From Escherichia coli (GTDB lineage Bacteria; Pseudomonadota; Gammaproteobacteria; Enterobacterales; Enterobacteriaceae): a stretch of DNA of 64,000 nucleotides. This document shows, piece by piece, positions 40,090 to 42,622 of this stretch. Position numbers and translations under genes: made by a program. Under the pieces are notes generated by a model. The model did not search any database, was not told the origin of the DNA, and was given only the letters and a program-made list of their open reading frames with translations. The stretch lies in assembly GCF_003334405.1 (NCBI RefSeq), contig NZ_QOWM01000005.1. One strand, 5' to 3'. The first letter of the stretch is position 1. Each line of letters opens with the position of its first letter.

Positions 40090-40510
40090 GCTTCGCCCGG
40101 CCACGCAGTACGACACCGACGCGGTTTACGCGCTGATTTGTGAGCTAAAACAGGCGGAGTTTGACCACCACGCGTTTCGCGTGGGTTTTAACGCCAATCT
40201 GCGCGACCCAAACATGCGCTACCATCTGGCGCTGCTTGATGGCGAAGTTGTCGGCATGATCGGCCTGCATTTGCAGTTTCATCTGCATCATGTCAACTGG
40301 ATCGGCGAAATTCAGGAGTTGGTGGTAATGCCGCAGGCGCGCGGTCTGAACGTCGGCAGTAAGTTACTGGCGTGGGCAGAAGAAGAAGCCCGCCAGGCCG
40401 GGGCCGAAATGACCGAACTTTCGACCAACGTGAAGCGCCACGACGCGCACCGTTTCTATCTGCGCGAAGGCTACGAGCAGAGCCACTTCCGCTTCACCAA
40501 GGCGCTGTAA
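40076..40510 (+). CDS. phnO: Aminoalkylphosphonate N-acetyltransferase PhnO (144 aa, GNAT)
   Basis: GNAT fold; overlaps the phnN end by 14 bp. Confidence 0.93.
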
Positions 40511-40511
40511 C

Positions 40512-41270
40512 ATGAGCCTGACCCTCACGCTCACCGGCACCGGCGGCGCACAGGGCGTTCCGGCATGGGGCTGCGAGTGTGCGGCCTGCGCCAGAGCGCG
40601 GCGCTCGCCGCAGTATCGCCGCCAACCGTGCAGCGGCGTAGTGAAGTTTAACGACGCAATCACCCTGATCGACGCCGGGCTGCACGATCTCGCCGATCGC
40701 TGGTCGCCCGGATCGTTCCAGCAGTTTTTGCTGACGCATTATCATATGGATCACGTCCAGGGGCTGTTTCCGCTGCGCTGGGGCGTTGGCGATCCGATCC
40801 CGGTTTACGGCCCGCCGGATGAACAGGGCTGCGACGATCTGTTTAAACATCCGGGCCTGCTTGATTTCAGCCACACGGTGGAACCGTTTGTGGTGTTTGA
40901 TTTGCAGGGGTTACAGGTCACGCCCCTGCCGCTCAACCACTCAAAACTGACCTTCGGTTATCTGCTGGAAACGGCACACAGCCGGGTGGCGTGGCTGTCT
41001 GACACCGCAGGCTTGCCGGAAAAAACGCTGAAATTTTTACGCAATAATCAGCCGCAGGTAATGGTGATGGATTGCAGTCACCCGCCGCGCGCGGATGCAC
41101 CGCGTAATCACTGTGATTTAAATACCGTGCTTGCGCTGAATCAGGTTATCCGCTCGCCACGGGTGATTCTGACCCATATCAGCCACCAGTTTGATGCGTG
41201 GCTGATGGAAAACGCACTACCGTCAGGGTTTGAGGTGGGGTTTGATGGGATGGAGATTGGGGTGGCGTGA
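40512..41270 (+). CDS. phnP: PhnP, metallo-beta-lactamase-fold cyclic phosphodiesterase (252 aa)
   Basis: HxHxDH motif (THYHMDH); last gene of the operon. Confidence 0.93.
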
Positions 41271-41292
41271 TGAGAGGGAATGTGCGCGCTGG

Positions 41293-41395
41293 CCCCCTCA
41301 CCCTAACCCTCTCCCCAGAGGGGCGAGGGGACCGATTGTGCTCGATATTGAATATTGCGCTCGTTTTCTCCCTCTCCCCATTGGGGTGAGGGGCG
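41293..41395. repeat. Two copies of a GC-rich palindromic repeat between convergent phnP and yjdP
   Basis: caccctaaccctctccccagaggggcgaggggacc (41293-41331) and ctccctctccccattggggtgaggggcga (41367-41395); same family as the element at 14077-14115. Confidence 0.65.
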
Positions 41396-41416
41396 ATGCC
41401 TGCTCCATACCCAACC

Positions 41417-41746
41417 TCATCGCCCATACTCATCTTCCATTCTCCGCTCTTCATCCTCCAGTTGCCGACGCTCCTGATCAAGCTGGCGCTGGCGATCGTC
41501 CAGCTGCCTGCGGCGATCTTCAAACTGGCGGCGGCGGTCGTCATATTGTCTGCGCCGATCGTCGCTCACTTCACGCTGCCAGCCGTCGTCGCGCGAATCT
41601 TCATAGTCTCGCCCACGGTCAGGGTTATAAGCGTCATTAATCGCCTGCTGAATATTGCCAATGGTGTCGTCGATAATATCGGCCTGGGCCGGAACGGTGG
41701 ACAGCGTGAGCAGGGTGAATAAAAGAAATAGCGGAAAGCGTTTCAT
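41417..41746 (-). CDS. yjdP: Secreted low-complexity protein YjdP (109 aa) with charged R/Q/D/E repeats
   Basis: Signal peptide MKRFPLFLLFTLLTLSTVPAQA followed by repeats of the form DDRRRQ(Y/F/L); function unknown. Confidence 0.8.
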   Translation of the reverse strand: MKRFPLFLLFTLLTLSTVPAQADIIDDTIGNIQQAINDAYNPDRGRDYEDSRDDGWQREVSDDRRRQYDDRRRQFEDRRRQLDDRQRQLDQERRQLEDEERRMEDEYGR

Positions 41747-41814
41747 TAGCCAACCTCAAAAAGAAACTCTATCCACATTAATCATTACTCATCCATGCAA
41801 GTAGTGGATGAATC

Positions 41815-42264
41815 TCAATTTCTCCGCTGCTCTATTGCCGTAATCGCCTCCACGCGTTGTTGATGACGACCGCCTTCGTACTGTGCGCCCAGCCACGCAT
41901 CCACAATCATTTTTGCCAGTTCGAGGCCAACCACTCGTGAACCAAAAGCCAGCACGTTGGTGTCGTTATGCTGCCGCGAAAGTTGCGCGGAATAAGGTTC
42001 GCTACAGACGACCGCGCGAATTCCGGCAAACTTGTTCGCCGCTATCGAAATACCGACGCCAGTACCACAAATCAAAATCCCGCCATCAACCTCTCCGCCA
42101 GCAACAGCCAGTGCGACTTGACTGGCGTAATGTGGATAATCAGTACGCTCTGACGACCAGGTTCCTTTATCAATCACTTCAACGCCACGCTCAACTAAAT
42201 GTGCCACTATTTCATGTTTTAAAATGAAACCGACATGATCACAGCCAAATGCAATCTTTTTCAT
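41815..42264 (-). CDS. rpiB: Ribose-5-phosphate / allose-6-phosphate isomerase B (149 aa)
   Basis: Translation MKKIAFGCDHVGFILKHEIVAHLVERGVEVIDKG... (RpiB/LacAB family). Confidence 0.95.
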   Translation of the reverse strand: MKKIAFGCDHVGFILKHEIVAHLVERGVEVIDKGTWSSERTDYPHYASQVALAVAGGEVDGGILICGTGVGISIAANKFAGIRAVVCSEPYSAQLSRQHNDTNVLAFGSRVVGLELAKMIVDAWLGAQYEGGRHQQRVEAITAIEQRRN

Positions 42265-42622
42265 TCATCTTCCCCGTCCGTGCAAAACTTCACAATCAAA
42301 AAACATTTGTGATGTTAATGAATTAAAAACACCCAAAATCGATGAATTACGCCTTCCTGATCTGTTTTACAGAGTTACATCTGACAGCGCAATAGCGTTA
42401 AAGACACTCACCATCCAGCAACATCTATCATCTAAAAAACCAGAAAAACAAATAACATCATGTTTTTAAACTAATTAAATGAAATAAAATTTTAAGCCAC
42501 TCGCCATTGTTCACAATAAAATAAACTTTATAAATTTTATTTTTTTGTGAAGTCGCCAGCATCTTTTCTGTTCTTGCTGTGGTGATATAGTGGCGTCTTC
42601 AATTCAAGGACAAGAGAACGTG

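Follow-up and report, generated by a model that had tools for sequence, protein, structure and literature searches.

BoxC is said to have been described by Bergler in 1992 and in the survey of Bachellier in the 1990s, and to be the same family as the ‘PIT elements’ of Hoyne and Maher (2000, 2002). In the literature, the element is ~ 50 nt long and strictly intergenic, and consists of three G/C blocks of 9-10 nt; when single-stranded, whether as DNA or as RNA, it can take on a hairpin, intrastrand purine-triplex or G-quadruplex fold. Petrillo 2008 (PMC2267715) listed 22 ‘BoxC’ members in E. coli, eco:21 among them. Holder 2015 (PMC4666352), where the elements are called ‘TMECO’ intrastrand triplex motifs and BoxC and then the PIT elements of Hoyne and Maher are given as the earlier names, counted 23 copies in MG1655, all of them intergenic, and a total of 3610 among 262 genomes of proteobacteria, with none in Salmonella. 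Kaplan 2016 (PMC5100583) never named BoxC and reported no counterpart of the motif among the known binding motifs of transcription factors. BoxC, PIT element, TMECO and HPG1/HPG2 are four names, given independently, of one element (PMC2267715, PMC4666352, PMC5100583).

REP/BIME (PU) sequences resemble BoxC in that they are short, intergenic, imperfectly palindromic, dispersed in enterobacteria and often located at the 3′ ends of genes. Nevertheless, they belong to another sequence family: BoxC has three blocks and ~ 20 copies, whereas REP is present in several hundred. RAYT transposases explain the REP elements, whose role in RNA 3′-end protection is established.

The locus described here lies in a 64-kb stretch of E. 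coli DNA (the window, whose numbering is used throughout), between two convergent genes, phnP (40512-41270, plus strand) and yjdP (41417-41746, minus strand). The intergenic region covers 41271-41416, which is 146 nt in K-12. Positions 41164-41514 are 100% identical to NC_000913.3 4314100-4314450, reverse strand, so the sequence of the locus is that of E. coli K-12 MG1655. We also observed that in NZ_CP032667.1, an ‘MG1655’ record, the offset relative to the window shifts by 200 nt from the melA/melR anchor to the phnP anchor (window 13903-41270), meaning that this record carries an indel relative to the window somewhere between the two anchors.

The original prediction placed two related imperfect palindromes, ~ 35 bp apart, between the convergent genes. 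On direct reading, caccctaaccctctccccagaggggcgaggggacc occupies 41299-41333 and ctccctctccccattggggtgaggggcga occupies 41368-41396; both strings are therefore present between phnP and yjdP, separated by 34 nt, and the second ends one base past the position 41395 that had been given for it. Their relatedness was seen in a repeat search, which returned a 24-nt direct match with 88% identity (41307-41330 and 41370-41393), as well as inverted arms within the copies and between copy 1 and copy 2. The view that they are not REP elements held as well, as direct reading of 41271-41416 revealed no REP core of the GCCGGATG/GCCTGATG or the GCCGGATGCGGCGT/GCCTGATGCGAC type. An Rfam scan of 40500-42500 (E ≤ 10) gave only noise, namely miRNA and snoRNA models far under their gathering scores. 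The family, which the original prediction had left unnamed, is BoxC (equal to the PIT element, TMECO and HPG1/HPG2). The extent and orientation of the copies had to be revised: copy 1 is longer (41290-41340, which takes in a further C-rich arm upstream, 41295-41303), and copy 2 is best regarded as truncated and running in the opposite sense.

When up to two mismatches were allowed, the core pattern CCCTCTCCCCNNNGGGG matched six times in the 64-kb window, compared to 0.24 matches expected. Copies 1 and 2, each matching on both strands, account for four of these, and the other two belong to a third copy, degenerate in sequence, at 14085-14107. The published family patterns had one match (three-block) and two matches (two-block) in the window, with 0.00 expected for each. 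The third BoxC-like palindrome, TTTTCACCCTCTTCCCAGAGGGGCGAGGGGAC on the minus strand, is located in the intergenic region between the divergent melA and melR; it has two blocks and the first C-rich arm is absent.

Copies elsewhere in the genome, which had been anticipated, were abundant. With the 146-nt intergenic region as the query, all 5426 of 5426 complete E. coli genomes matched, at a median of 18 places per genome (range 1-33), which identifies a dispersed repeat; one MG1655 record had 20 such places. Only 43 of the 87,363 places were plasmid-borne.

Copy 1 (41290-41340) is a full-length type A BoxC with the C-rich strand, as published, on the plus strand. It corresponds base for base to eco:21_BoxC, TGGCCCCCTCACCCTAACCCTCTCCCCAGAGGGGCGAGGGGACCGATTGTG, in the supplement of Petrillo 2008. 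Its minus strand at 41294-41329 is TMECO #22, type ‘A mm’, CCCTCGCCCCTCTGGGGAGAGGGTTAGGGTGAGGGG, in Table 1 of Holder 2015 (PMC4666352), where the position is 4,314,285-4,314,320. The element includes the first C-rich arm, CCCTCACCC (41295-41303, plus strand), which the sequence and the family alignment delineate as the third triplex block or outer arm. The arm is followed by the TAA loop that defines type A (41304-41306 on the plus strand; TTA on the minus strand) and by the core hairpin CCCTCTCCCC / AGA / GGGGCGAGGGG (41307-41330, plus strand), which was recovered by the repeat search, by folding and by the two-block pattern. The core hairpin contains the single T·C mismatch that is typical of the family and is denoted by ‘mm’ in the Holder type name. 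The three-block family pattern, 5′-CCCTCNCCC N3-6 GGGNGAGGG N3 GGGNGAGGG-3′ (Holder 2015), matched copy 1 at 41295-41329 on the minus strand. Moreover, copy 1 agrees with the consensus of 20 published BoxC copies at every conserved position.

We also scanned both strands of the window with a regular expression for canonical G-quadruplexes, i.e., four tracts of G3+ with loops of N1-7. The only such motif in the 64 kb was GGGGAGAGGGTTAGGGTGAGGGGG, which belongs to copy 1 and is read from its minus strand (41293-41316). It is listed by Kaplan 2016 (PMC5100583) as HPGQ #51, class HPG1, between yjdP and phnP at 4314309, and the minus strand of copy 1 is also the 21-nt HPG1 sequence of Kaplan, GGGAGAGGGTTAGGGTGAGGG; HPG1/HPG2 is the same element under another name. 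Compared to the BoxC/PIT/TMECO descriptions, copy 1 shares the three-block architecture, the intergenic site, the A/B types, the inverted A+B pairing and the instability among strains, and we noted no difference.

An AT-richer spacer (41341-41363) separates copy 1 from copy 2. The latter (41364-41393, plus strand) was delineated from its sequence and the family alignment as a decayed type B BoxC opposite to copy 1, with a TTTTCT head followed by CCCTCTCCCC / ATT / GGGGTGAGGGG. In K-12, copy 2 keeps two of the three blocks; it matches the two-block pattern at 41370-41392 and leaves the three-block pattern unmatched. In consequence, it is absent from the published BoxC lists. At the same site, strain 32A22CPO009 carries TTTTCTCCCTCGCCCCATTGGGGAGAGGGCCGGGGTGAGGGG, a complete type B element opposite to copy 1 that matches the three-block pattern and has a CCG second loop and the type B TTTTC/GAAAA end. 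Relative to this intact allele, the K-12 copy has lost 12 nt (AGAGGGCCGGGG) between GGGG repeats and carries one substitution. The phnP-yjdP region of K-12 is an inverted, tail-to-tail BoxC pair, composed of an intact type A element and a type B element that is missing its middle G block.

Types A and B in inverted orientation were reported at five other K-12 sites (Holder 2015, PMC4666352). With copy 2 recognised as a decayed type B partner, phnP-yjdP becomes the sixth A+B site in K-12; the same A-spacer-B arrangement is found at lldD-trmL. Pairs of type B followed by type A are present in K-12 at ygfF-gcvP (L140:85-230), alx-sstT (L141:85-230), fepB-entC (L139:85-215, reverse complement) and hrpB-mrcB (L138:83-200). 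The B-spacer-A pairs at ygfF-gcvP, alx-sstT and fepB-entC have in common a conserved spacer of ~ 27 nt, TAAATNTTCGCRCCAGTGCYGGCCTGTTC, so that the B+A pair behaves as one composite repeat of ~ 125 nt.

We must also note some shorter similarities. TGTTC, which stands ahead of many solo type A copies, is the end of the TAAATNTTCGCRCCAGTGCYGGCCTGTTC spacer. In the stretch 41256-41292, the last phnP codons include ATTGGGGTG, identical to 41380-41388 inside copy 2, and ahead of copy 1 lies AATGTGCGCGCTGGCC, whose likeness to the conserved pair spacer is weak. These similarities could be a trace of an older BoxC partner that extended into the phnP 3′ end, or could have arisen by chance. A third BoxC remnant inside the phnP 3′ end was considered and set aside, as AATGTGCGCGCTGGCC aligns only weakly with the conserved spacer, and we make no claim for it.

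For a view beyond E. coli, contigs from one genome per species were scanned with the pattern CCCTCACCCYRRCCCTCTCCC. Among the matches listed, the pattern accompanied by a complementary G-rich third arm was found in Mitsuaria (at least 88 copies), Contendobacter, Afipia, a Hyphomicrobiales MAG, a delta-proteobacterial MAG and an unclassified MAG; the two C-rich arms are fixed by the pattern, which leaves the third arm and the loop as the independent part of the observation. The three-block core, including the GGGCGAGGG mismatch variant, was present in alpha-, beta-, gamma- and delta-proteobacteria with different flanking repeats, again among the matches listed. In this set, the core was embedded in genome-specific flanks of its own in GL140_5 (L010-L037), Contendobacter (L110-L115) and the delta-proteobacterial MAG (L127-L129). 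The repeat unit of the MAG GL140_5 is ~ 110 nt long and comprises, besides the core, a separate hairpin on the upstream side, GCGGGCGGAGCCCGC, and a T-rich tail that is conserved.

The phnP-yjdP region varies in length among E. coli strains, and the fetched loci comprised alleles of 158, 146, 95, 76, 42, 34 and 27 nt. The K-12 length was found in ~ 22 of 40 evenly spaced records, and a 446-nt query across the locus was covered by ≥ 80% in 3,595 of 5,424 genomes. In the 95-nt allele, copy 1 is fused to copy 2 at their common GAGGG, whereas in the 76-nt allele (O55:H7 and O157:H7) two GGGGCGA repeats are joined. Only the end of copy 2 is left in the 34-nt allele, and the 27-nt allele contains no BoxC sequence. 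The end points of several alleles fall in repeated GGGG, GAGGG or GGGGCGA tracts. Most of the length alleles are deletions whose ends lie in short repeated G/C tracts; for the 27-nt allele, an empty site and a deletion are both conceivable.

Comparable losses were observed at two other loci. At zntA-tusA of ATCC 25922, 8 nt of the third BoxC block are lost, and at fimH-gntP of many strains the BoxC core is missing and a tail-like sequence remains. Neither a target-site duplication nor a clean insertion junction was seen at phnP-yjdP, zntA-tusA or fimH-gntP, and the variants look like decay or deletion. As reported by Holder 2015 (PMC4666352) for 56 strains, intergenic changes occurred in 39% of the TMECO-locus comparisons, whereas > 90% of control regions were unchanged; slippage or stalled forks were proposed there as the cause. 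The allelic variation at phnP-yjdP agrees with this TMECO instability.

The original prediction went on to interpret the palindromes as stable hairpins that act as terminators. The hairpins themselves were reproduced by RNA folding, with -23.0 (plus strand) and -32.3 kcal/mol (minus strand) for copy 1 (56-nt stretches) and -18.6 and -16.3 kcal/mol (plus and minus) for copy 2, and the whole intergenic RNA was more stable than its shuffles (z = -3.35 and -3.03). If the copies were Rho-independent terminators, transcription of the phn operon would stop at the copy-1 hairpin and that of yjdP at the copy-2 hairpin, a role that fits these GC-rich structures and their placement between convergent 3′ ends and in which they would resemble intrinsic terminators, with a GC-rich stem-loop downstream of the stop codons. 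BoxC differs from such terminators, however, in having no 3′ U-tract. Direct reading found no T-tract 3′ of either stem on either strand, the tails after the stems being ACCGATTG and CGATGCCT on the plus strand and AGAAAACG and CCAGCGCG on the minus strand. There is a single T-run (TTTTCT, 41364-41369), which on the plus strand lies ahead of the copy-2 stem and on the minus strand reads as A’s beyond it. A terminator and promoter scan gave no site in 41271-41416. We also considered the spacer hairpin with TTTTCT (41331-41372) as a weak phnP terminator and rejected it, since at -5.4 kcal/mol and z = -0.7 it was no better than shuffles. Furthermore, family members are also located upstream of genes and inside operons, at inconsistent distances and orientations, and about one third of E. 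coli genomes are without most of this stretch. As summarised in Holder 2015 (PMC4666352), the reporter assays of Hoyne and Maher 2002 showed no promoter or terminator activity for the family, and RNA polymerase was unaffected. Our literature search returned nothing relevant on the mapping of phnP or yjdP 3′ ends. The missing T-tract, the negative scan, the inconsistent positions and the reporter work cited by Holder 2015 do not support the terminator reading, which we consider the most improbable of those weighed here. The same hairpins, which lie 24 nt past the phnP stop and 23 nt past the yjdP stop, could instead act on RNA in the manner of REP, blocking 3′-5′ exonucleases in the 3′ UTRs of phnP and yjdP and thereby stabilising the upstream mRNA without termination. 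Against such protection stand the inconsistent position and orientation of the family relative to genes and the natural alleles without the elements; as these alleles are common, any protective effect would be dispensable, and we consider this role unlikely. A further proposal, made by Kaplan 2016 (PMC5100583), is a G-quadruplex / hairpin / duplex switch, in which the G-rich strand of copy 1 would toggle between G-quadruplex and hairpin and modulate transcription of the neighbouring genes. That strand holds the sole canonical motif of the window, and circular dichroism of oligonucleotides gave evidence for both the G-quadruplex and the hairpin forms in that study. However, ViennaRNA with G-quadruplex folding enabled still preferred the hairpin, at -32.3 kcal/mol, so the G-quadruplex gains no support as the ground state. 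Copy 2 has only two G-tracts per strand, and its G-quadruplex potential is lost in K-12; moreover, the flanking genes of the family have no common functional theme. The NMR data of Holder 2015 (PMC4666352) argue for a triplex over a G-quadruplex, and the in vivo footprint is that of a duplex. The triplex itself was observed in that work by CD and NMR in vitro, on isolated single strands only, and was not detected by in vivo DMS footprinting. We thus rate the switch as highly improbable at this locus.

The reading we prefer, with a probability of roughly 65%, is that of an inverted BoxC pair that is neither terminator nor promoter but a structure-prone, non-coding repeat, tolerated in the 3′-3′ gap and prone to deletion. 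The best-supported effect of BoxC is on DNA stability, and it is local and deletion-prone in nature. Once the strands come apart in replication or repair, the short repeated G/C tracts and fold-back structures would promote slippage and misalignment, by which the locus would decay through small deletions. The link to instability is a correlation, and weak constraint on these intergenic sites could account for it instead. Passive decay also does not explain the near-identity of most copies or the uniformity of the core across proteobacterial classes, and the latter, lying beyond passive decay, keeps open a minority reading with a trans-acting partner. BoxC may be a mobile or protein-recognised element (MITE or REP/RAYT-like), copied or inserted by a dedicated enzyme that acts on the BoxC fold, and its uniform sequence and wide distribution would then be explained. 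Such mobility would be consistent with the wide taxonomic spread of the core described above for the matches listed, with its lineage-specific flanks in at least the GL140, Contendobacter and delta-proteobacterial MAGs, with the K-12 B-spacer-A composite and its conserved 27-nt spacer, and with a copy number that varies from 1 to 33 matching places among E. coli genomes. To our knowledge, there is no candidate enzyme acting on BoxC. The three loci compared yielded no target-site duplication or clean empty site, the elements are nearly absent from plasmids, and no link to transposons or phages was reported (Holder 2015, PMC4666352), which together make a mobile origin distinctly unlikely in our judgement. 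In a related view, which we hold to be just as doubtful, BoxC would form the core, shared across these classes, of a composite structured unit such as the K-12 B-spacer-A pair, and a trans-acting partner (a structure-specific nuclease, a transposase or a binding protein) would maintain or spread it, as RAYT does for REP; if this were true, phnP-yjdP would represent the unit in a decaying state.

In terms of classification, the phnP-yjdP palindromes are an already known element, BoxC, and the pair adds no new kind of element. What is new here is small, and comprises the identity of K-12 copy 2 as a decayed type B partner, the allelic deletion series at the locus across 5,426 E. coli genomes, and the conserved spacer common to the B-spacer-A pairs. 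For annotation, ‘BoxC (TMECO) repeat pair’ is the appropriate label for the region, and not ‘terminator’. The locus is a convenient natural allelic series for the question of whether BoxC pairs provoke deletions, with intact A+B, K-12 decayed B, collapsed hybrid and near-empty alleles.

Three mechanically called ORFs of 40 aa run across the repeats, at 41267-41389 (plus strand), 41298-41420 (minus strand) and 41355-41477 (plus strand), with translations that include ...PLTLTLSPEGRGD... (in 41267-41389) and ...GPLTLTLSPEGRGD...; RefSeq has nothing annotated at these ORFs. They are most likely repeat artefacts, and ORFs of this kind are a possible source of spurious ‘hypothetical proteins’. We also observed that the zntA-tusA gap of ATCC 25922 (L135:201-460) contains, beside its decayed BoxC, a REP/BIME-type cluster of ~ 160 nt (GCCGGATGCGGCGTGAAC..., GCCTTATCCGGCCTAC...), meaning that two unrelated repeat families reside in one intergenic gap.
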